Source of the DNA: Nanobdellota archaeon
Lineage (GTDB): Archaea > Nanobdellota > Nanobdellia > Woesearchaeales > SM23-78
Length of the DNA: 32,000 bases
Assembly (NCBI GenBank): GCA_038046485.1
Contig: JBBSWA010000031.1
Coordinates: 13,270-45,269 of the forward strand
Direction of reading: 5' to 3'
Made by a program: the position numbers and the translations under genes. The notes below the pieces were generated by a model. The model searched no databases and was not told the origin of the DNA. It was given only the letters and a program-made list of their open reading frames with translations. This document shows positions 1-27,980 of the stretch, piece by piece (the stretch's first letter is position 1; each line of letters begins with the position of its first letter).

Positions 1-120
1 CTCTTGGACGGTCATAGCGGTCTGGTCCTACCCGATCCCATTCCGAACTCGGAAGTCAAGCAGACCCACGTTCCAAGGAGTACTTCATTAACGTGCGGGA
101 AACTTGGATCGCTGTCCACC
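1..120 (+). rRNA. 5S ribosomal RNA, apparently complete; the 5' end lies within the first few nt of the window
   Basis: Contains the conserved 5S core 'cccgatcccattccgaactcggaagtcaag'. A terminal helix forms between tggacgg (5-11) and ctgtcca (112-118, one G-U pair). A T-run (ttttct, 121-126) follows immediately. Confidence 0.85.
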
Positions 121-2337: not shown

Positions 2338-2795
2338 ATTAAGAATAAGACTCCAAAACCAACCAATAATCCTAGAATCACTCCAGCTGCTACGTCTTCT
2401 ATATAATGGCGCTTGAGATAGACTCGAGAGATGCAGACGGCAAATGTGAGTATGGCCAAAAAAAATTGCACGTAAAACCCAGTGAAATAAGACCCTAACA
2501 CGACGAGTAAACCCGCACTTCTTGCTGCGTGTAGACTCGGGAAGGATTCTTCGTCGACTTGAACTACTTTATTGATCGGCCAGATTTGGTCAAACCTTTT
2601 CTTCGGATCGAAATCCGGGCGATGCTTCTTGTAAAAAAACTTGATACTCAAGCCGATTGCAGTTGTAATTAAGATCATGAGGAATAGCTTAATGGATAAT
2701 TGCTCTTGCCCATTTAGGTAGGTGAATAGAGCTAAGACTAGAGAAAAAAAAATTGTTCCTAAACTACTGATGTGGCGAACGAACTTTTTGATCAT
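2334..2795 (-). CDS. PAP2-family membrane phosphatase (phosphatidic acid / undecaprenyl-diphosphate phosphatase type)
   Basis: All three PAP2 motifs are present: K(x6)RP 'KFFYKKHRP', 'PSLH', and 'SRVYLKRHYIEDV' (SRx5Hx3D). Multiple TM helices. Start overlaps the upstream gene (ATGA). Confidence 0.8.
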   Translation of the reverse strand: MIKKFVRHISSLGTIFFSLVLALFTYLNGQEQLSIKLFLMILITTAIGLSIKFFYKKHRPDFDPKKRFDQIWPINKVVQVDEESFPSLHAARSAGLLVVLGSYFTGFYVQFFLAILTFAVCISRVYLKRHYIEDVAAGVILGLLVGFGVLFLI

Positions 2796-3682
2796 TTTGC
2801 CCTCCAGACAATCTTTGCTATAAAAAAGCCTTCAGTTTGTGTTTTATGCGGCCATAACCTTCTGCATTTGCTTAGTTCTGGATTAAGCTTTTCCCCAAAG
2901 ACCTCCGTAAGACCTGGATCGCCAATTTCCAACTCTACTTTTTCTAGCTTTAGTTCAGGGTATTTTTTCAACAACCAGTCGATGTTCATTTCGTTTTCTT
3001 CGGGTTCTAATGTGCAGGTGGAATAGACCAAGACGCCGTCTTTCTTCAACACCTTGACAGCGGCTTTTAAGAGCTCCTTTTGTAATCGTGCACGCTCTTT
3101 AATCCCATCAATGGTTTTCTTCCCAAACCAATCCTTATCTGTGATGAAATTACCTGAACAGGGTGCATCGAGCAAAATCTTGTCAAACTTCATCTTGAAA
3201 TCCGGAATGAAACGAGCATCTTTCTTGTAAATGATCGAATTGGTAACCCCACAACGCTCCAAGTTGTTGCGCACTGAAACTAGGCGGTGCACATTCTCAT
3301 CCAATGCCATGATTACTCCTTTGTTTTTCATGTATTGCCCTATCTGAGTTGTTTTACTCCCTGGAGCTGCTGCCATGTCGAGCACGGTTTCGCCGGGTTT
3401 CGGATTTAAGACTTTGACAGGCAACTGGCTTGCCGCTTCTTGAAGGTAATAATACCCGATTAAGTATTCAGGTGTGGCACCCATGGAGAACTCGGCTTCG
3501 TACCAATACCCCCACTCCAAAAAAGGTATTTTTTCAAGCTTAACCCCTTCCTTTTTTAGACGCTTCACGATTTCCTCTTCCTGAATCTTTAACGTATTCA
3601 CTCGCAACGAAGGCCTTATTTCGATTGTCTCTGGATCAAAGTCAGCGCCGAGCTGCTTATACCGGTTCAGGAAGAAGTTCAT
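2792..3682 (-). CDS. NOL1/NOP2/Sun-family RNA cytosine-C5 methyltransferase
   Basis: SAM motif 'VLDMAAAPGSKTTQI' and catalytic Cys motifs 'LLDAPCSGNF' and 'YSTCTLEPEENE'. Confidence 0.85.
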   Translation of the reverse strand: MNFFLNRYKQLGADFDPETIEIRPSLRVNTLKIQEEEIVKRLKKEGVKLEKIPFLEWGYWYEAEFSMGATPEYLIGYYYLQEAASQLPVKVLNPKPGETVLDMAAAPGSKTTQIGQYMKNKGVIMALDENVHRLVSVRNNLERCGVTNSIIYKKDARFIPDFKMKFDKILLDAPCSGNFITDKDWFGKKTIDGIKERARLQKELLKAAVKVLKKDGVLVYSTCTLEPEENEMNIDWLLKKYPELKLEKVELEIGDPGLTEVFGEKLNPELSKCRRLWPHKTQTEGFFIAKIVWRAK

Positions 3683-3723
3683 GAGTAACGAGAGGAGAGC
3701 TTAGTATTAAAGGCTTATGGCAT

Positions 3724-3987
3724 TTATTGCAAGTATTCCTGGATTTCTTCCCTTTTCTTATGGTTTAGAGAAACGTGCAATCCGTACGAAGTTGGCTTTG
3801 GAACTAGAATTCCTTCTTGAATTAACTCTTCGATTGCTTCTTTTACACTGCCTTTGAAGTGACTCGGTAGACCTTTTCGAAGATTTTCAATGGCTGTATG
3901 CCGACCACCGATGTAACCATGATGGAAAAGTTTCTTAACGATAAAGCCTTTGAGTTGCTTTTTTTCCATTTCACTTGCGTCTATCAC
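3724..3987 (-). CDS. small hypothetical protein, possibly winged-helix-like
   Basis: 87-aa ORF, divergent from 4126. 'VKEAIEELIQEGILVPKPTSYGLHVSLN' resembles a wHTH recognition helix plus wing. Weak assignment. Confidence 0.45.
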   Translation of the reverse strand: MIDASEMEKKQLKGFIVKKLFHHGYIGGRHTAIENLRKGLPSHFKGSVKEAIEELIQEGILVPKPTSYGLHVSLNHKKREEIQEYLQ

Positions 3988-4062
3988 CTTTATTATAAAT
4001 CCGTGCGTCGGATTTTCGTATTTTTTCCGAGAAAAACAGAGGTTTTACGGGAAAAGCAAGTT

Positions 4063-4083
4063 CTTTTCGGCAAGCTCGAAAAT
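4063..4083. promoter_or_regulatory. inverted repeat cTTTTCG-N7-CGAAAAt abutting a TATA-like box; candidate operator
   Basis: cttttcg (4063-4069) and cgaaaat (4077-4083) are reverse complements. The box 'gctataaatag' (4085-4095) follows. Further TTTTCG copies lie at 4012-4018 and 4108-4114 (reverse). Confidence 0.3.
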
Positions 4084-4125
4084 TGCTATAAATAGTGTTA
4101 GTGATAACGAAAAGTATAAATACTA

Positions 4126-4458
4126 ATGATGTTTACTAGAATCATGGAAAAATCGGTTTTCATCCAAACCTTTGGGGACTATCCTTTGATTCGGATCTTA
4201 GACTTTTTGATCTACTCCCGAGACTTTGACTACCCCATCACCGAGATTGCCAAGAACTCCGGCGTGAACTTTCAGACACTGAAAAAGTTGTGGCCTCGAT
4301 TGGAAAAAGAGAAAATGGTGATTGCCACTCGGAAACTCGGAGGGGGCCAACTCTACAAGATCAACATACAGAATGTGGTTGTGAAGAAACTGATTGAGTT
4401 CAATGAGTTTTTGTGCTGGGGGAATGTAGGGGAGAAGAAGATAGTTGTTAATAAGTGA
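4126..4458 (+). CDS. winged-helix DNA-binding protein (putative transcription regulator)
   Basis: 'YPITEIAKNSGVNFQTLKKLWPRLEKEKMVIATRKLGGGQLYKIN' has an HTH plus beta-wing pattern. An alternative start at 4144 (MEKSV...) would be leaderless relative to the box at 4114-4121. Confidence 0.6.
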   Translation: MMFTRIMEKSVFIQTFGDYPLIRILDFLIYSRDFDYPITEIAKNSGVNFQTLKKLWPRLEKEKMVIATRKLGGGQLYKINIQNVVVKKLIEFNEFLCWGNVGEKKIVVNK

Positions 4459-4464
4459 ATATAG

Positions 4465-4553
4465 AGGACTTTGAATAACCCTGCATATAGTGTTCAAAGT
4501 CCTAATAGAGCGCTTTGAATCATTTTCGGAAATACAGTTATTCAAAGCTCTCT
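4465..4553. terminator. two tandem related palindromes in a convergent intergenic region; possible bidirectional terminator hairpins
   Basis: Hairpin 1: aggactttgaa (4465-4475) / ttcaaagtcct (4493-4503), 11/11 bp. Hairpin 2: agagcgctttgaat (4507-4520) / attcaaagctctct (4540-4553), near-perfect. Both stems share a CTTTGAA/TTCAAAG core. Confidence 0.4.
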
Positions 4554-4564
4554 ATAATCTATTC

Positions 4565-5713
4565 TTAATTATATAAAGGAATCAATACGCCATGCACACC
4601 GTTTGCGATGACCCTTGCTTTCCCTGTGTAGTTCTCCATTTCTTCTATTATATCATCGTTAAATGAATCATCTGCGGTTTTACCTGCAGGACCACATGCA
4701 GTCACTTGAGCTCGGTTCATAAAACGGTACGTCCCATGGAACAAACGGAACGGTGCATAAGGCTGGAAATACTCCAACTTTCCTAATGGCACTGTGATCG
4801 GCAAATTGTTTGACAGCCTATGTTGCAAGATAAGACCATAAGGCCTTTTTACATCGCAAACAGGTTTATTCCTTGAGCTGTTCTTAAGTTCTAGTGGATG
4901 TACTCCTTTAAGGTCAACAACCATCCCTTCTTCACCTGTTGCACCGATTAGATCGGGGAATACTAAGTGTTTCAAACCTCTTACATTATCTAAAAGCGAA
5001 AAAGACCGTGCTTCCTCTAATAACTTGAATGCCTTTATCTGGTAAAAAGAAAGAGGTTCCAAACCAAATTCGACTTGATAAGCCCATTCTCGCGAAACAA
5101 GACCTGAATTTACGATTTTGCTGTACATCTCTACAAGTTTATCCAACTCTTTAGAATTAGAAAGTTCTGAAGTTCGATGAAATGATTTATCCCAATTTCC
5201 ATCTGATTTTAATTTCGGTGTATGTGTGTAAAAATCCCCTCGGCCTTCCCCTCCAGAGTCTATATCAAAATAATCTACAAAAAGAGTCCTTTCCTCCCAT
5301 TTTGAGAAAGGATGCAGTAACATGGTCCCTCTCATCCTTGATTGTGATTGCTCCTGAACCAAGAAATGAAGTTTGGACGTATATGCACCGGAATCGTCTA
5401 CCATGAAGGCGTTCATTTCCGGCGTTTTCATTTCTCTTTCCATTTCTTTTATTGCTTTTTCAAGATCTGTAAAAGAATTTATGTTTTGGAGGGTAGGGAC
5501 TGCACCTACACACCCTCTCCAATCGGTCTTGTGCGATCCTCGTACGATGATGGGCTTTCTTAGCTTTTCAAACTCGCTTTTTATGGAACTTACATCTTGA
5601 CCTGCATATAAGAACGCAGAGCGCGGAATGGGGATTTTTAAGCCGCGTTCCAAGAACAGGCGTGTTGCTTCTAGTTTACTTCCTCCTCGATTGATCAGTG
5701 CATCGGTTAGCAT
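4565..5713 (-). CDS. hypothetical protein with a divergent PEP/pyruvate-binding (PPDK N-terminal, ATP-grasp-like) N-terminus
   Basis: 'NRGGSKLEATRLFLERGLKIPIPRSAF' and 'PIIVRGSHKTDWRGCVGAVPTLQNINSFTDLEKAIKEM' resemble the GGKxxNL...G..VP and VRSS...SFAG...T.LNV blocks of PF01326-type domains. No phosphohistidine swivel motif seen. A gtttaaaaac box lies about 26 nt upstream of the ATG. Confidence 0.55.
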   Translation of the reverse strand: MLTDALINRGGSKLEATRLFLERGLKIPIPRSAFLYAGQDVSSIKSEFEKLRKPIIVRGSHKTDWRGCVGAVPTLQNINSFTDLEKAIKEMEREMKTPEMNAFMVDDSGAYTSKLHFLVQEQSQSRMRGTMLLHPFSKWEERTLFVDYFDIDSGGEGRGDFYTHTPKLKSDGNWDKSFHRTSELSNSKELDKLVEMYSKIVNSGLVSREWAYQVEFGLEPLSFYQIKAFKLLEEARSFSLLDNVRGLKHLVFPDLIGATGEEGMVVDLKGVHPLELKNSSRNKPVCDVKRPYGLILQHRLSNNLPITVPLGKLEYFQPYAPFRLFHGTYRFMNRAQVTACGPAGKTADDSFNDDIIEEMENYTGKARVIANGVHGVLIPLYN

Positions 5714-18584: not shown

Positions 18585-19079
18585 ATGGTACACAACAAAC
18601 GAGCTAAGGATACTAGACAACGTGGCAACCACACTCACGGCTGGGGTAGCAAGAAAAAGCACCGAGGTTCCGGACATCGAGGTGGAAAAGGAAACGCTGG
18701 ATCTGGAAAGAAAGCAGACCAGAAAAAACCCAGCTACTGGGCAGATAAAAATTTCCAAGGCAAACACGGCTTTCACAGTCATTCCCAAGCTTTGCTTCAA
18801 AACCCCATCAACTTAGATGACTTACAGATTCGACTGAATACCCTTGTAACTCAAGGTAAAGCAAAGAAGCACGGAGATAGCTATGAGATTAACCTCAATG
18901 AATTAGGCTATAACAAGCTGCTTGCTTCTGGAAAAGTCGCTCATAAGTTTAAAATTACCGTGGATCATGCCTCTTCAAAAGCTGTTTCCAAAGTTCAAGA
19001 AAAGGGCGGAGAAGTTATGGTCTTAAAAGTAAAGGAAGTAAAAGAAGTAAAAAAAGAAGTGAAGAGTGAGAAGGAATGA
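18585..19079 (+). CDS. rpl15: 50S ribosomal protein uL15, with a K/E/V-rich tail
   Basis: 'HRGSGHRGGKGNAGSGKK' Gly/Lys loop. Canonical slot before secY. Confidence 0.93.
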   Translation: MVHNKRAKDTRQRGNHTHGWGSKKKHRGSGHRGGKGNAGSGKKADQKKPSYWADKNFQGKHGFHSHSQALLQNPINLDDLQIRLNTLVTQGKAKKHGDSYEINLNELGYNKLLASGKVAHKFKITVDHASSKAVSKVQEKGGEVMVLKVKEVKEVKKEVKSEKE

Positions 19080-22584: not shown

Positions 22585-22934
22585 ATCATTTATCGTCTAT
22601 GTTCAAGCCCGTAATTGGTTTACAGTTTGCAAATTTTGCTTATTTTGAGGCATTTTTCATTATGGCGTAATGCGCTTTAATACGTGACGTTTAGCCCTTC
22701 GTGGGAAAGAAAATCAAGATCGATAACTGTGTTATGATGCAGTTGTCGAGCAAAAACTGTAAACTTATTTCGTGCTTATACGCTTTGTCGACGGTGAATG
22801 TCATTCCAGACCCGAAATTCGTTTACAAATACAACCAGCATAGAAAGGGGTATGTCCTTTTTAAACTTTAAAAATGACTTATATACTGCAGAAGTGTAAA
22901 CGAATTTCGGACTTATACAATCATTTATCGTCTA
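22585..22934. mobile_element. MITE-like non-coding element: 15-bp direct repeats flanking about 320 bp with imperfect 24-bp terminal inverted repeats and internal copies of the same motif
   Basis: Direct repeat atcatttatcgtcta at 22585-22599 and 22920-22934. Termini 22601-22624 and 22895-22918 are reverse complements in 19/24 positions by hand alignment. Internal copies at 22758-22781 (+) and 22804-22827 (-). 22812-22827 is a perfect 16-nt complement of 22895-22910. Confidence 0.35.
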
Positions 22935-22945
22935 GAAATGAGCGA

Positions 22946-23311
22946 TTATGCACACCATCTCGCTCCGCTGGAGCTTGTGCCACAGGGAAATTGATAGTCC
23001 TCGTTATCCCCGTCATGATCATTCCAACGCCAGGGATGATAATAATAGGAGGGCCTTCCATATCCGTATCCATAGTAACTCGAATAGGGCGATCGGTAGC
23101 CTAAACGGGGTCTTGAATAACTGGAATAAGAATAGGGGTGCCACTGCCAGTAACCACTTGATTGATAACGATAGGGGTAATCCCAACTGTTATAGCGGTT
23201 GTAATTGTTGTAGTAATTATACGAGTCGCCGTTGTACGAGTACATGGCTGAGGCAAAGGGTAGTAAAGCGAGTAACACTAAAGCCAAAACTATCCCTTGT
23301 GAGGTTTTCAT
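22946..23311 (-). CDS. secreted tyrosine-rich low-complexity protein
   Basis: Signal peptide 'MKTSQGIVLALVLLALLPFASA', then a Y/S/N/G/P/W-rich region (24 Tyr in about 99 residues by hand count) ending 'CGTSSSGARWCA'. I prefer the ATG at 23311; the track start at 23356 is a GTG inside the promoter-like repeat. Confidence 0.6.
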   Translation of the reverse strand: MKTSQGIVLALVLLALLPFASAMYSYNGDSYNYYNNYNRYNSWDYPYRYQSSGYWQWHPYSYSSYSRPRLGYRSPYSSYYGYGYGRPSYYYHPWRWNDHDGDNEDYQFPCGTSSSGARWCA

Positions 23312-23335
23312 AGAATGGGGGAATACGAAGAACTT

Positions 23336-23436
23336 TTTAAACGTTCTGAATTTCACCTTATTAAAAACCCAATATTGGGTGAAATTCTGACGTGATCAAG
23401 AACTGCTTATCATATCTTTTTGGCAGTTCTTGACAG
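23336..23436. repeat. left copy of the inverted promoter/operator-like module
   Basis: Blocks 23336-23352, 23383-23410 and 23426-23436 match the reverse complement of 29499-29515 (17/17), 29441-29468 (27/28) and 29382-29392 (11/11). Block 1 contains TTTAAAAA. Confidence 0.8.
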
Positions 23437-23475: not shown

Positions 23476-23866
23476 TTAAGAATAACCATACGGGTTCCAA
23501 TACGAACCCCCATACCTGGTTTGAGGGTAGGCATATACCTCCTGATTGGAGTATGTGTCTACGACGTTATGAATATCCTGTACTTGGTACACCTTATGGT
23601 GTACGGTTCTTAAAATATGATTGCGCTCATGCGTAAAATAACGGTTGATGGGCTGTACATCGTACACGTCTTTCTGAGATACATCTGTATTTAGCGTGTT
23701 AGAAGGTCCATAACTAGGGGAGTTATAGACTCCGTAGTTGAGTTGATTATAAGGCGCATAATAATAGAGAGGTAGGATATCCATATCCTAGAAACTGATA
23801 AGCTCCTACGAGGCTTACGGCTAACAGTGCAATGAGACTGAATACAATCAAAGAGATGATTTTCAT
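23476..23866 (-). pseudogene. second secreted Tyr-rich protein, split by a 1-nt frame discontinuity (pseudogene, assembly indel or recoding)
   Basis: The ATG at 23866 encodes the signal peptide MKIISLIVFSLIALLAVSLVGAYQFLGYGYP... and stops after 38 codons. The Tyr-rich 102-aa ORF (23476-23784) continues in the +1 frame from within the GGATATGGATAT repeat. A gtttttaaac box lies about 26 nt upstream of 23866. Confidence 0.45.
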
Positions 23867-24379: not shown

Positions 24380-24409
24380 CTTATTTGGAGAATTACTTCA
24401 TTTATCAAA

Positions 24410-25018
24410 TTAATGCTTTCTTAAAGCCAAAATACTAAGTATTAAACCGGCCAACGCGATTGCATTAAACCAATATTGATACGAATTTTTTTCAGGGAAT
24501 ACAAATTTCTCTTGATCTTTAGGACAACCAAATGAGCCACTCTTGGATAGGCGCGTGACTCTCTCTGCAATTTTCACTGAGTTATTATCGGAATCGCCAT
24601 GGTTCATTCCTTCCATATTACATTCAAATGTGACATCAAACGGCACACTTTCAATCGAACCGAAAAGATGGTATGCAATCGGAATGGCTTTGCTGAAGTA
24701 AATCGTATTCTTGTAAGAACCTGGACTTCCATACACTGCTTGAATACTCCATTCCTGTCTTTCGTTTCCAGCGATCACTTCCACTTTCAACGACTTCTCC
24801 AAGCCTTCCATCGGAATTTCTGATAGGTTTCCACTCTGATTCTTGACTTCCTTCACCCTCAAATCAATTCCTGACTTGTCTTCCACAACCACAGGCTCAT
24901 TTAGAGAACCGATGACAAAAGAATAGGTTTTATTCCCGATCTTAAAGACTTGATGCTCATGTGCCGTAACGAGAGATACAAACAAAAGAAATAAGATGAT
25001 CCCTTGAAGCCATTTCAT
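24410..25018 (-). CDS. secreted, C-terminally membrane-anchored protein with a His-rich mature N-terminus
   Basis: Signal peptide 'MKWLQGIILFLLFVSLVTA', followed directly by 'HEHQV'. C-terminal TM plus basic tail 'YWFNAIALAGLILSILALRKH'. The architecture, not clear sequence similarity, recalls YcnI/DUF1775 metal-binding proteins. Confidence 0.55.
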   Translation of the reverse strand: MKWLQGIILFLLFVSLVTAHEHQVFKIGNKTYSFVIGSLNEPVVVEDKSGIDLRVKEVKNQSGNLSEIPMEGLEKSLKVEVIAGNERQEWSIQAVYGSPGSYKNTIYFSKAIPIAYHLFGSIESVPFDVTFECNMEGMNHGDSDNNSVKIAERVTRLSKSGSFGCPKDQEKFVFPEKNSYQYWFNAIALAGLILSILALRKH

Positions 25019-25073
25019 GGAGTTCAGCTCTCTTCCCCTCTTTAAAAAGAATTAGGGACAAAAGACGAACGAT

Positions 25074-27146
25074 TTACTTCTTCCAATGTAGCCCAGCATA
25101 GAATGAACGACCTGGTGCCGGCTCATAGTAACGGCCATTGTTTGGATCCACATCCACTTGAGTTGAGCCGCTGAAGCGAGCATCTGTCAGGTTTTTGCCT
25201 TCCAAGAATAGACCAAAACCTTTGAATTTAACTTCTCCGCTTACATTCAATGCCGTATGCCCTTTATTGGTTACTGTATTTGGGCTATCTAAGAAATAAC
25301 TATCTAGTACGGAATCCACACTGGGTGCTATCTCGAACCCACTACTGTCATAGCGTACTTCTGCATGAAGTACCTGGTTGGGTGCGCCGGGAAGCTTGTT
25401 GTCCTCAAATATAGAATGATCCACAAAATGGAAATCACTGAGTGTGTATGCTGCGCGCATTCCTAGATGGTCTCCTTCGCGAGCTATGTTTTCTGCGATG
25501 CGCACACCTACCCCCAATTCTAATCCACTATGCCGTGATTTAGGAGCATTTACATAACTGGGAATGGTGAATGGAGCGCCTGGGAAGGGCTGAAGATTCA
25601 CATTTAGGAGTTCATTTGCCCAATCTGATCTGTATACTGCGGCGTCTAATGTTATGTGCTCTCCGATTTGTCCACGTGTACCCAGTTCAAACTGCCAAGC
25701 ACTTTGCGCTTTCAGCGGTAAAAAACCTTGTTCTGCCCCGAAACTGGTGAGTTCGAGTGTTAACGGAGATTCATAGGAACGACTGGCATTGCCAAATACC
25801 TGTGCCTTTTTCGCAACGCGCCACACAAAGCCTACTTTGGGCTGGATGGCTTGATAGGTTCTTGCATCTGAGCTGTCCCCCTCACTTGGAAATCGATCCT
25901 CAAACATCCGTCTTGAAGAATCAAACCGTGCGCCGGTTACGAGTGTGAAGTTGCTTGTGAGATCCCATTGATTTTCAGCATATATTCCTAGGTTGGTGGT
26001 GTCTGCTCGAAAGTCACCCGTTAGCTCTCCTTTTTTACCCGCGTCATTTACAAAACGATGTTCTGTGTTTCCGCCCAGCTGAGGAGCAAAGCCGATCACG
26101 AAGCGATCTTTTTTACCATTGAATTTGTAAGCAAGATCGGCGCCGATTGTATGCTGACTCTGCCTTAAGACCTGAAAGATGGGATGTTCCACTTCTCGAT
26201 TATGCCCATACAGCGTGACAGCAACGACATTCTGATCATTGATGCGATGATTTACTGTGAAAGCCACGTGGGCGAAATCATAATTGCGCCCCCACTGTTG
26301 CTCTACATTCGTTGGATCTGCCATTTGAGGATTTGATTTAAACTCTTGGAGCGTGAGTGCACCTGGAAGTTCTTCGGTGACATGCGCGTAAGCTATATCG
26401 AGACGTGTATCTGTTTTTTGAGTTGGTCTCCAAACGAGATTTGAAAAGAGCCTTTGTCTACCTTGTTCACTGTGCTTTCGATATCCACCTAGCTCTGTAT
26501 CTGAAAGACTTATGTAGTAGCCCATATGTCCGTTGTCGTTTCCTGAAGAAAATTGACCCTTGAACAACCCATTTGAGCCTGCGCCTAAACGAAGCTGTAG
26601 CGGGGAAGCCGTAGCACCGGTTTCTGTGACAAAGTTAATGGCACCACCCATGGTGTTTCCCCCAAGGCGCAATGCATTTGCTCCTTTCCATACTTCCACA
26701 CGATTGGTGGCTGAAGGATCCCAACTTTCAAAGTCACTGAATCCATCTGCATCTCCATACGGAACGCCATTGAATAACACATTTGTTCCACGATGATGGA
26801 AGTTATTGCGCCCCCCACTACCACGGATAGAGACCTGACTTTCATCGGCACCTGTTCTGGATGGAGCAAAAACCCCTGGCGTAAATGCAAGGACATCTTC
26901 CAAGTTGTGAGCACGTGTTCTTTGAATGTCTTCTGAAGTAACTTCTGTTACACTCCCTGGGACTTGATCTAATTCTGATTTGGAGTGTTCGATTACTGTT
27001 ACAGTAAGATTTACTGCTGGAATTTTAGAATCTGTACTTTCAGCTGCAACTTGCTGAGGTTCTTCTTTTGGTCCAGTGTAGGCCCCACTTGGACGCACAA
27101 GAGATCCAGCAAGCAACGCTGGAAACAAGATGTTTCTTAATTTCAT
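25074..27146 (-). CDS. TonB-dependent receptor (bacterial outer-membrane plug plus 22-strand beta-barrel family)
   Basis: Signal peptide. Plug blocks 'VPGSVTEVTSEDIQRTRAHNLEDVLAFTPGV', 'VSIRGSGG', 'VLFNGVPYGD' and 'RVEVWKGANALRLGGNTMGGAINFVT'. Barrel-end block 'GKNLTDARF...YYEPAPGRSFYAGLHWKK'. Confidence 0.88.
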   Translation of the reverse strand: MKLRNILFPALLAGSLVRPSGAYTGPKEEPQQVAAESTDSKIPAVNLTVTVIEHSKSELDQVPGSVTEVTSEDIQRTRAHNLEDVLAFTPGVFAPSRTGADESQVSIRGSGGRNNFHHRGTNVLFNGVPYGDADGFSDFESWDPSATNRVEVWKGANALRLGGNTMGGAINFVTETGATASPLQLRLGAGSNGLFKGQFSSGNDNGHMGYYISLSDTELGGYRKHSEQGRQRLFSNLVWRPTQKTDTRLDIAYAHVTEELPGALTLQEFKSNPQMADPTNVEQQWGRNYDFAHVAFTVNHRINDQNVVAVTLYGHNREVEHPIFQVLRQSQHTIGADLAYKFNGKKDRFVIGFAPQLGGNTEHRFVNDAGKKGELTGDFRADTTNLGIYAENQWDLTSNFTLVTGARFDSSRRMFEDRFPSEGDSSDARTYQAIQPKVGFVWRVAKKAQVFGNASRSYESPLTLELTSFGAEQGFLPLKAQSAWQFELGTRGQIGEHITLDAAVYRSDWANELLNVNLQPFPGAPFTIPSYVNAPKSRHSGLELGVGVRIAENIAREGDHLGMRAAYTLSDFHFVDHSIFEDNKLPGAPNQVLHAEVRYDSSGFEIAPSVDSVLDSYFLDSPNTVTNKGHTALNVSGEVKFKGFGLFLEGKNLTDARFSGSTQVDVDPNNGRYYEPAPGRSFYAGLHWKK

Positions 27147-27198
27147 ATTTTATTGAATAAAGCAAGTTACTTATATATCCTTAGGGACGAAAAACGAA

Positions 27199-27720
27199 CT
27201 ATTCTTCCCAAGTGTCCACAAATTTATCCACTAACTTATCCAAGAAGCTTTCTTTATACGCAATGAGGATCTTTACTACTTCATCCTTGTCTTTTAATTC
27301 GTATGTTTTTTCCCTTCCTTTCTTGCGGGAAACAATCACGTTTTGTTTTTCAAGTACGTTCAGATAGGTGGTAATTGTGGAAGGAAACTTACCGAGCTCC
27401 TTTACGAGCTCTTTATGGTTTACCCCTTTATCTGTTAATAGCTTTAAGACGATTCGTCGATAAGCCCCTTGTTGTAAAACTCCTAATAAATTACGCTCGT
27501 AGTCGTTCAACCCCAAAGGGAAAAGGCGCTTATTTCCCCTGCTTTTTTCAACCTTGATCAGGTTTTTCTTTTCCAGGTATCTTAAATGGTATTCTAGATT
27601 GCCTGTTCCTCTGTTATATAATCGATATAAAGCCCTGAAATGGATGCCTGGGAACTGCTCGATTAAAGAATAAATCTTCTTTCTGGTCTCTAACAGCAAA
27701 GCGTCCTCTTTTTGCTTCAT
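27199..27720 (-). CDS. transcription regulator with two tandem winged-helix domains (ArsR/archaeal wHTH type)
   Basis: Two wHTH units: 'IYSLIEQFPGIHFRALYRLYNRGTGNLEYHLRYLEKKNLIKVE' and 'RIVLKLLTDKGVNHKELVKELGKFPSTITTYLNVLEKQNVIVSRKKGREKTYEL'. Confidence 0.75.
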   Translation of the reverse strand: MKQKEDALLLETRKKIYSLIEQFPGIHFRALYRLYNRGTGNLEYHLRYLEKKNLIKVEKSRGNKRLFPLGLNDYERNLLGVLQQGAYRRIVLKLLTDKGVNHKELVKELGKFPSTITTYLNVLEKQNVIVSRKKGREKTYELKDKDEVVKILIAYKESFLDKLVDKFVDTWEE

Positions 27721-27980
27721 CTTAAAATCCCAAGAGCGAACAACACGAGAATGACTAAGCTAAGGGCATGGGTGAAGACCTCCACGGATGCTGAGCCCCA
27801 TACGATTATATTCATCGCCAAAACCACTTCCTTGATTGCGAAAATCAAGAACGCTGCGCAGATGAACAAGAACTTCCTGTTTTTATTCCGCTGATAGACC
27901 AAAGAGGCCAAGCCGAACAAGGATAGAGACAAGGCTGCTGTTACAAAATGCAAGAGATGATGCCATGAAATTACTTCCAT
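27717..27980 (-). CDS. small 3-TM membrane protein, translationally coupled to the wHTH regulator
   Basis: 87 aa with three hydrophobic helices. ATGA overlap with the downstream regulator gene at 27717-27720. Confidence 0.6.
   Translation of the reverse strand: MEVISWHHLLHFVTAALSLSLFGLASLVYQRNKNRKFLFICAAFLIFAIKEVVLAMNIIVWGSASVEVFTHALSLVILVLFALGILR

Follow-up and report, generated by a model that had tools for sequence, protein, structure and literature searches.

Our analyses support the insertion of a bacterial TonB-dependent receptor gene into an archaeal locus, accompanied by the duplication of a local promoter element, in a 32,000-nucleotide stretch of DNA from a Nanobdellota archaeon (assembly GCA_038046485.1, contig JBBSWA010000031.1, positions 13,270 to 45,269; hereafter the window, in whose own numbering coordinates are given), and we assign this reading a probability of about 0.8. 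TonB-dependent receptors are regarded as characteristic of diderm bacteria, and when one turns up in an archaeal database entry it is usually dismissed as contamination. Here the integration is demonstrable from junctions reproduced between assemblies, empty sites in two related archaea, a flanking duplication of the target, host-like codons and an archaeal promoter, and all detectable relatives of the protein are bacterial; the candidate inter-domain transfer proposed in a preliminary description of the window is upheld by this evidence. The case represents a known kind of protein in an unexpected host, a concrete example of the reach of inter-domain transfer into DPANN genomes, and an illustration of how a foreign gene gains host expression signals through a duplicated local promoter element. 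It also raises the question of what role a plug-barrel protein could have in a cell for which neither an outer membrane nor TonB nor a barrel-assembly machine is known. Should the gene be expressed and under selection, it bears on the envelope and partner biology of uncultivated Woesearchaeota; if not, it offers a clean snapshot of a dead-on-arrival transfer ahead of its decay.

The receptor gene and its predicted product

The receptor gene and the parts of its product are located as follows, with the basis of each assignment in brackets.

25074-27146, minus strand: TonB-dependent receptor gene with a YncD/PqqU-like fold, 690 amino acids, MEK6963470.1 (open reading frame, Pfam, AlphaFold2, Foldseek, accession)
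27081-27146, minus strand: predicted Sec signal peptide, amino acids 1-22, MKLRNILFPALLAGSLVRPSGA with cleavage before Y (inspection of the translation)
26991-27011, minus strand: TonB-box-like motif NLTVTVI, amino acids 46-52 (family alignment and YncD/PqqU N-terminus)
26640-26969, minus strand: Plug domain, amino acids 60-169 (PF07715, E 1.9e-22)
25077-26597, minus strand: beta-barrel, amino acids ~184-690 (PF00593, E 7.8e-36; strand pattern of the AlphaFold2 model)

The open reading frame (ORF) runs from ATG to stop without interruption, and the identical protein is public as 'MAG: TonB-dependent receptor [Nanoarchaeota archaeon]', where MAG stands for metagenome-assembled genome. The signal peptide, plug and barrel-end motifs reported in the preliminary description were all recovered, the first by inspection and the domains through Pfam matches that pass the curated cut-offs (Plug, 80.2 bits against a cut-off of 23.9; TonB_dep_Rec_b-barrel, amino acids 276-653), with a predicted fold in agreement. 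The AlphaFold2 model, built from 53 aligned homologues, reached a predicted local distance difference test score (pLDDT) of 84.2 and a predicted template modelling (TM) score of 0.85; disorder is confined to amino acids 1-55 (pLDDT <50) and a plug loop at 111-115, and the barrel forms an unbroken strand ladder from amino acid 184 to 689. Its best Foldseek matches were PqqU (9c4o; E 2.9e-54, TM 0.83/0.87, root-mean-square deviation 2.7 A, 24% identity) and YncD (6v81), followed by FecA and FhuA, with TM scores of 0.72-0.87 over PqqU, FecA, FhuA and FoxA. A sequence search of the PDB agreed with the fold search in returning YncD/PqqU as top match (E 1e-38).

The N-terminus reads MKLR, then NILFPALLAGSLV, then RPSGA before the Y of the mature protein, with a hydrophobic stretch of 13 residues as judged by eye. 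By inspection it is a predicted Sec-type export signal, through which the receptor would be exported via Sec; it is unlike the N-termini of the bacterial relatives, and the region is unaligned. Downstream of it, NLTVTVI aligns with the xVTVxE motif of the family and the N-terminal VSA region of YncD/PqqU, its V51 being invariant across 16 aligned sequences, and the lock-region residues R108, E487 and E543 are present. The earlier statement that the gene is full length and free of frameshifts stands as far as the intact ORF is concerned; it does not hold for domain content, as the N-terminal CarboxypepD_reg domain (~70 amino acids) of the closest relatives is missing, an absence shared with a minority of the bacterial members. 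Similarly, the C-terminal GLHWKK is real, with the W at -3 conserved and a final, non-aromatic Lys, but it is less atypical than had been supposed, since some bacterial homologues likewise end in RWRR, RWKR or RWSM.

Linkage of the receptor to archaeal DNA

The gene order flippase, helix-turn-helix (HTH) regulator, receptor, 202-amino-acid protein, tRNA_edit was seen in the 45-kb NCBI contig, in the ENA assembly of another replicate (13,339 bp, 99.985% identical, with two mismatches, neither of which falls in the receptor) and in a Logan contig (9,125 bp, 100% identical) recovered from 3 runs. The ENA contig is archaeal in its own right because SecY and LSM are also encoded on it, and the contigs of one assembly that carry the receptor and the ribosomal protein operon have equal nominal coverage (cov_4). 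The foreign segment consists of exactly one ORF, with spacers of 52 and 55 nucleotides (nt), and the population signal amounts to two single-nucleotide polymorphisms between assemblies, none of them within the receptor. A chimeric assembly at the gene borders had been a concern of the preliminary description; both junctions recur in independent assemblies, and as far as assemblies can tell the receptor locus is not an assembly artefact. Elsewhere in the window, the ENA replicate assemblies both stop in the interval ~18702-19070, upstream of SecY, where the NCBI contig continues through: the R2 contig begins at 18702 and the R1 contig, judged by its length, is estimated to end near 19070, which leaves the receptor junctions unaffected.

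Empty sites and duplication of the target

Two related archaeal loci show the site without the receptor. In a 930-bp contig (L012), an orthologue 71% identical to the 202-amino-acid protein is preceded by the 3' end of the orthologue of the HTH gene (...ILIAYRESFLDQLVDKFAETWQLSMF, then stop), the arrangement being HTH, a 46-nt spacer and the gene of this 203-amino-acid orthologue. In the closest species-representative genome (L021; DATDWO010000071.1, a Candidatus Nanoarchaeia MAG, SecY 94% identical), synteny is kept across tRNA_edit, the 202-amino-acid orthologue, HTH, a small membrane ORF, flippase and CDP-alcohol transferase, and the receptor is absent. Among the 80 Woesearchaeota-type SecY loci retrieved, none holds the receptor.

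In the window the receptor is bracketed by two copies of a direct repeat, each leading into a TATA-like box.

27181-27215, minus strand: upstream repeat copy, which starts within the final codons of the HTH gene and takes in its stop, a T-rich tract and GTCCCTAA directly before the TATA box of the receptor (repeat alignments)
27171-27178, minus strand: TATA-like box ATATATAA of the receptor, centred 28 nt before the ATG (sequence; position as in other window genes)
25052-25089, minus strand: downstream repeat copy, which starts within the final codons of the receptor (H-W-K-K) and takes in its stop, a T-rich tract and GTCCCTAA before the TATA box of the 202-amino-acid gene (repeat alignments, empty sites)
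25041-25048, minus strand: TATA-like box TTTTTAAA of the 202-amino-acid gene, centred 26 nt before the ATG (position conserved in L012 and L021)

The ungapped core of the repeat is identical at 20/23 positions (25052-25074 against 27181-27203); it is the top repeat family of the region and has two copies only in the 32-kb window. A gapped local alignment extends over ~37 nt with a score of 34, which none of 2000 shuffles reached (0/2000; mean 15, maximum 30), and other gene 3' ends score at most 19 in the same alignment. Both copies are homologous to the element that is present as a single copy in the empty sites of L012 and L021. The repeat reaches into the last codons of both genes (ACACTTGG--GAAG--AATAG... 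against ACA-TTGGAAGAAGTAAATCG...), and the H-W-K-K-stop of the receptor is plausibly a copy of the T-W-E-E-stop region of the regulator, although this gapped alignment is suggestive only. Loss of the terminal aromatic residue of the receptor would then follow, because the duplication would have supplied its last codons. We rejected the view of the non-aromatic last residue as an archaeal peculiarity, as such ends occur in bacterial homologues and duplication at the junction explains it better.

The 3' end of the regulator itself (27199-27215) reads ...DTWEE and stop, as compared with ...ETWQ(L/V)S(M/I)F and stop in L012 and L021, and is 3 codons shorter. The regulator seems to have been shortened by the insertion event, its old coding end persisting after the stop in both repeat copies.

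The arrangement shows that the receptor gene was inserted between the winged-helix regulator and the exported protein with an N-terminal His, duplicating 23-37 nt of target, namely the 3' end of the regulator, the T-tract and the conserved GTCCCTAA element. Through this duplication the receptor and the downstream gene have each come to be preceded by GTCCCTAA and then a TATA-like box. On the tree ((window, L012), L021) the simplest history is one gain; alternatively, there may have been two losses through recombination between the repeats.

Expression signals

The archaeal-style TATA box at 27171-27178 described previously was confirmed, and no Shine-Dalgarno motif is visible before the receptor ATG. 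Similar AT-rich boxes, centred 24-35 nt upstream of the ATG, precede other genes of the window, a spacing that fits archaeal leaderless or short-leader transcripts. Before the 202-amino-acid gene, the GTCCCTAA element lies directly 5' of the TATA-like box in all three lineages, and the ATG follows 33-34 nt after the element ends. The receptor promoter has the same layout (cgtccctaa, then ggATATATAAg), with 34 nt from element to ATG. In its first half the repeat carries the T-tract, which resembles an archaeal terminator that would serve the gene before it. We looked for further promoter copies of GTCCCTAA in the window, the 7 kb upstream of it and L021 and found none, which indicates a local promoter/operator element duplicated by the insertion and not a genome-wide motif; the idea of a wider regulon motif was dropped on the same grounds. 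A lone extra match in L021 falls inside a coding region. From these signals the receptor gene is probably expressed, and its own archaeal promoter would give rise to an mRNA with a short leader or none.

The archaeal host

The genes of the window include S4e, L32e, L5e/L18, SecY with a Sec61-type plug, LSM, RNase P p29 and SUI1, and in a SecY scan the host falls among Woesearchaeota/Nanoarchaeia MAGs, with best matches of 91-94% identity. The contig is archaeal, as the preliminary description had held, and of the Woesearchaeota-type DPANN; contig names indicate the Hainich H51 groundwater well as the source of the sample. A 5S ribosomal RNA (window 4-120, plus strand; RF00001, 77.7 bits) is the sole Rfam match in the window. 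In the same SecY scan, public MAGs (L065, L070 and many others in L016-L095) with SecY loci 64-91% identical to that of the host bear the names 'Alphaproteobacteria bacterium', 'Pirellulales bacterium' or 'uncultured Methanosarcinales archaeon', and such labels on Woesearchaeota-type SecY loci point to mislabelled or misbinned records in the clade.

Called genes of the window gave no Pfam match to TonB, ExbB or ExbD, in line with the earlier reading of the window, nor did those of the 7.2 kb upstream; no Omp85 was found on the 45 kb of contig examined. The literature searched holds no report of TonB-dependent receptors or such systems in DPANN or other archaea, and a scan of GTDB representative genomes with the receptor found no relative. 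Upstream of the window, the contig (L005 13754-14524, 20338-20849) encodes a cupredoxin/COX2-domain protein and archaeal PheRS alpha and beta, as well as a MazE/ParE toxin-antitoxin pair and a 430-amino-acid protein with a faint dockerin match. The cupredoxin/COX2-domain protein is a copper protein, so that the organism depends on a supply of copper.

Origin, constraint and base composition

A homologue search of 5.8 billion proteins, including assemblies from the same aquifer, returned 2048 matches, the best of which apart from the receptor itself is 53% identical. The best relatives are bacterial and 47-53% identical over 93-100% of the query; those that are named belong mostly to the Acidobacteriota (Terriglobia, Blastocatellia, Pyrinomonadaceae, Thermoanaerobaculia), together with one Gemmataceae, and the one archaeal sequence among the best 120 matches is the query. 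Two short homologues that likewise lack the N-terminal domain (P0016, P0041) were considered as archaeal relatives and rejected, their contigs having 73-76% GC. In a neighbour-joining tree the receptor has the longest terminal branch of the 120 sequences (0.407, against a median of 0.107) and is sister to a high-GC clade (P0026, P0030, P0038, P0044 and others). In a 5.46-Mb high-GC bacterial contig (L009 8001-12747), a sister-clade receptor overlaps the start of a gene for a ModA-like binding protein, and genes for a permease and a TOBE-domain ATPase come next; on the upstream side are CusB/CzcA-type efflux genes and a multicopper oxidase. The context hints at an oxyanion or metal as substrate of the receptor family.

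The receptor keeps 108/116 near-invariant columns, and about 95% of the conserved positions of the family are retained. Six changes at near-invariant positions are radical (L112G, D328R, R532V, W605E, G638E, Y658F), and the count of deviations at such columns is the highest of the 120 sequences. Residues unique to the receptor occupy 8/173 columns conserved at >=90% (4.6%), as compared with a pooled rate of 0.66% in the others and with 1-3 unique residues at conserved columns in bacterial members on comparably long branches, a roughly threefold difference from the latter. A wholly neutral branch would change about one-third of the conserved positions, which implies that most of the branch evolved under ordinary receptor constraint. 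Taken together, whether the receptor has been maintained by selection, now or until recently, in a low-GC genome and under altered constraint appears to us an evenly balanced matter.

Base composition does not set the gene apart. An excess in GC to ~52% had been reported from hand counts, but the actual value is 46.3%, against a mean of 42.5% for host genes (standard deviation 2.9; z = 1.3), and the GC content at third codon positions (GC3) is 0.373, against 0.423 +/- 0.058 in the host (z = -0.85). The excess is found only at codon positions 1 and 2 and thus reflects amino-acid composition; a GC anomaly was consequently discarded as a sign of foreignness. The comparison of codon usage and oligonucleotide composition envisaged in the preliminary description places the receptor within the range of the host, with a codon-usage log-likelihood of z = -1.1 and, against the rest of the window, a dinucleotide distance of z = 1.0 and a tetranucleotide correlation of z = -1.5, both within the range of host segments. 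In contrast, four sampled genes of bacterial homologues have GC3 values of 0.70-0.98 and lie far outside the oligonucleotide signature range of the host. The host-like GC3 is evidence for integration.

Neighbouring genes

The two genes that flank the receptor are the following.

27199-27720, minus strand: winged-helix regulator of the HVO_0163 N-terminal HTH and ArsR/HTH_5 type, MEK6963471.1, the upstream neighbour (Pfam, NCBIfam)
24410-25018, minus strand: 202-amino-acid exported beta-sandwich protein with a C-terminal membrane anchor, the downstream neighbour (family alignment, AlphaFold2, context)

The regulator matches an NCBIfam metalloregulator subfamily with E 4e-12 and 45.7 bits, under the curated cut-off of 55. 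The 202-amino-acid protein belongs to a family of ~67 uncharacterised proteins, one of them a Kaiserbacteria entry, which have a near-invariant His at the first mature position, two invariant Cys and usually a C-terminal membrane helix. Its AlphaFold2 model is a beta-sandwich (pLDDT 92.3) with a C-terminal helix at amino acids 180-201. No Pfam match at E <= 1, no PDB sequence match and no Foldseek match at E <= 0.001 were found for it; its best fold matches, below significance, are the copper proteins P19 (E 0.015) and CrdA.

In L021 the orthologue is followed by a 533-amino-acid protein that combines a CopC domain (E 3.7e-21) with a multi-pass membrane region and whose gene (3601-5202) sits between the 202-amino-acid gene and tRNA_edit. 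A CopC gene adjoins the family gene in L021, L013 and L015, and distant homologues are followed by genes for ~900-amino-acid CopC proteins, with Zip and FUR nearby. In the window the 202-amino-acid gene and tRNA_edit are only ~30 nt apart (24380-24409), and the locus has no CopC/CopD gene. In the relatives, the regulator, the N-terminal-His protein and the CopC/CopD protein together resemble a copper-uptake cassette; the receptor, placed behind the same promoter element, would probably be co-regulated with the copper-type cassette by the adjacent regulator.

On the other side of the regulator, an 87-amino-acid ORF with three membrane helices (27717-27980, minus strand) shares 4 nt with the start of the HTH gene, with which it probably forms an operon. 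The ORF is conserved in L021 (6431-6703), and its only domain match is a weak one to DUF5985. Elsewhere in the window are two exported, low-complexity ORFs extremely rich in Tyr, Ser, Asn and Gly (e.g. ...YSYNGDSYNYYNNYNRYNSWDYPYRY...; 22946-23356 and 23476-23784, both on the minus strand), neither with a Pfam match; L021 encodes an orthologue of one of them (2707-3069). A break in the Logan assembly, at 22889/22890, lies just upstream of these ORFs.

Alternative explanations

Several observations count against a bacterial gene inserted with a duplicated promoter element, or limit what can be said of it. There is no transposase or integrase in the neighbourhood, and the insert is confined to the receptor ORF and its 34-nt leader. 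The core of the repeat is also a conserved promoter/terminator element, hence its similarity is no clock, and the duplication might not be a classical target-site duplication. Fourfold-degenerate sites are saturated between the window and both empty-site relatives (p 0.49-0.74), which makes dating of the gain by synonymous divergence uninformative. The receptor stands as a singleton: it has no second copy in archaea, its relatives reach 53% identity at most, which leaves donor and date unfixed, and the tree of 120 sequences is a neighbour-joining tree only. Nominal coverage is low (4-6x), linkage rests on assemblies, and the copper assignment of the 202-amino-acid neighbour rests on genomic context. 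A drift that produced the 4.6% change (~0.022 substitutions/nt) leaves the ORF open in 16% of substitution-only simulations. Finally, we know of no outer membrane, TonB/ExbBD or BamA in such organisms.

That an assembler joined a bacterial receptor to archaeal DNA, or that the contig was misbinned, is highly improbable. The low coverage (cov 4-6) and the frequency of misbinning in the clade, with Woesearchaeal SecY loci labelled Alphaproteobacteria or Pirellulales, would allow it; yet the same junctions occur in the NCBI contig, the ENA assembly and Logan contigs from 3 runs, the foreign part is exactly one ORF with spacers of 52-55 nt, a related archaeal genome shows synteny with both flanks, the gene lies between two copies of the target sequence, an archaeal-type promoter precedes it, and its GC3 and oligonucleotide signature resemble the host and not the bacterial homologues. 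The long branch, roughly equidistant (~50% identity) from all bacterial clades, might instead betray plug-barrel proteins that form an old archaeal clade, passed on vertically and with a role outside any outer membrane. We regard this as next to negligible, given that the query is the sole archaeal sequence in the best 120 matches, that the gene is absent from 80 Woesearchaeota-type loci, syntenic ones included, and that empty sites and flanking duplication indicate a gain. In sum, no established archaeal clade emerged, profile hidden Markov models support the plug and barrel assignment, and linkage holds at the assembly level.

Accepting the insertion of a bacterial gene, the alternatives concern its function. 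The receptor may be a recent passenger, a real transfer from an unsampled low-GC donor that is functionless, drifting and bound to be lost, and we consider this possible, if somewhat doubtful. As a singleton absent from the two nearest relatives, it departs from the family-invariant positions more often than any other of the 120 sequences, conserved sites show no depletion of its unique substitutions (high/low ratio 1.68, against 0.38), no TonB/ExbBD is found on the 45-kb contig, an open ORF is compatible with short neutral drift (P about 0.16), and some family members look low-GC by amino-acid composition (e.g. P0113, P0120). A neutral episode of that length is, on the other hand, far too short to shift GC3, and this scenario therefore needs a donor with GC3 of ~0.37-0.39 and a host-like signature, whereas the four sampled homologues have 0.70-0.98 and no protein above 53% identity exists among 5.8 billion, same-aquifer assemblies included. 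The repeat copies have diverged (20/23 and indels), which suggests more time than neutral drift of the ORF permits; the simulation moreover lacked indels, which would cut the survival probability of the ORF further, and the receptor retains the plug, the TonB-box-like motif and 95% of its conserved positions. Canonical use, in which an outer membrane-like layer, TonB/ExbBD and barrel assembly would be encoded elsewhere and the receptor would import its ligand, draws on the retained TonB-box-like motif, plug, barrel and lock-region residues R108, E487 and E543, and to our knowledge the Woesearchaeota envelope has never been imaged. TonB-powered import across an outer membrane is nonetheless very unlikely in this archaeon because no TonB, ExbB, ExbD or Omp85 is encoded on the 45 kb examined; the literature searched reports no such systems in DPANN, and a lone, recently gained gene absent from close relatives cannot belong to an ancestral envelope system. 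An equally slim chance is given to a partner-directed protein, acquired from a diderm bacterial partner and exported to insert into or disturb the outer membrane of that partner and divert a metal or cofactor. Its bacterial origin, its predicted export signal and its place in a metal-acquisition cassette that lost the CopC/CopD importer would suit this, as would the many genes of bacterial type in DPANN and such proteins in Woesearchaeota, bacterial hosts of some DPANN having been left open (Castelle et al. 2021; PMC8204110). Direct evidence for it is entirely lacking, no delivery system was identified, the terminal aromatic residue of the insertion signal is absent, and the hosts of all DPANN in cultivation are reported to be archaeal (PMC11291902).

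If the inserted receptor is functional, its most likely, though speculative, role is a TonB-independent one at the envelope, where it would bind a metal or cofactor ligand or act as a gated pore for it. A fuller version, in which a DPANN archaeon has domesticated a bacterial transporter under the promoter element of a copper cassette whose CopC/CopD importer was lost, and uses it without TonB to take up chelates of a metal or a cofactor, either in an undescribed outer envelope layer or in a diderm bacterial partner's outer membrane, is in our view unlikely. Were it true, this would be the first functional plug-barrel transporter in Archaea and an indirect sign of symbiosis between an archaeon and a bacterium.

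Comparison with known systems

The best solved-structure match by both sequence and fold is E. coli YncD/PqqU, the TonB-dependent importer of pyrroloquinoline quinone (PQQ; 6v81, 9c4o). The receptor resembles PqqU in its size class, its plug and barrel and the lack of an N-terminal extension, and differs in sequence, with 24% identity, and in its host, an archaeon without known TonB or outer membrane. PQQ is coordinated in PqqU by K274, R304, R365, R536, Q84 and Y99, and Arg and Glu substitutions at K274 occur among its homologues (PMC12124388). At the corresponding positions of the receptor, R304 is kept as R317, K274 is replaced by R287, Y99 by F116, Q84 by D101 and R536 by P525, and R365 falls in an unaligned stretch. 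With 176.5 bits against a cut-off of 1200 for the NCBIfam PqqU equivalog NF041535, and with this mixture of ligand residues, an identification of the receptor as PqqU was rejected. The copper-type neighbourhood led us to consider also the copper transporters OprC/NosA (6z8q and others), which share the superfamily fold; they rank 33rd and lower in the fold search at 15-16% identity, nothing supports a copper site of Cys, Met and His, and an OprC-type copper receptor was likewise rejected.

For the insertion site, although not for the receptor, an analogy exists with the copper-uptake operon ycnKJI of Bacillus subtilis, which encodes the regulator YcnK, the CopC/CopD fusion YcnJ and the membrane-anchored copper-binding YcnI (PMC8424229, PMC12154828). 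In L021, a regulator, an anchored protein with an N-terminal His and a CopC protein with several membrane helices are likewise encoded in one orientation. The regulator is, however, of the HVO_0163/ArsR type and not YcnK, and the locus in the window has a receptor and no CopC/CopD gene. The 202-amino-acid neighbour was not accepted as YcnI, for which it would need a DUF1775 Pfam match or a PDB sequence match that it does not have, and YcnI is not in its fold matches; the His after cleavage, the membrane anchor and the adjacency to CopC support a protein that may work like YcnI, as distinct from membership of that family.

The closest relatives in sequence are the uncharacterised CarboxypepD_reg-Plug-barrel receptors of Acidobacteriota and allies, annotated by JGI as 'iron complex outermembrane receptor protein'. 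Their genomic contexts are metal-related: one of them is accompanied by a ModA-like ATP-binding cassette (ABC) importer and CusB/CzcA, a second by CbiX, ArsR and ACR3. The archaeal receptor differs from them in the missing CarboxypepD_reg domain, an unrelated signal peptide, a GC3 of 0.37 against 0.70-0.98 and an end in KK in place of R-Y/F, and shares with them the TonB-box-like region, the C-terminal GLxW motif and 108/116 near-invariant positions.

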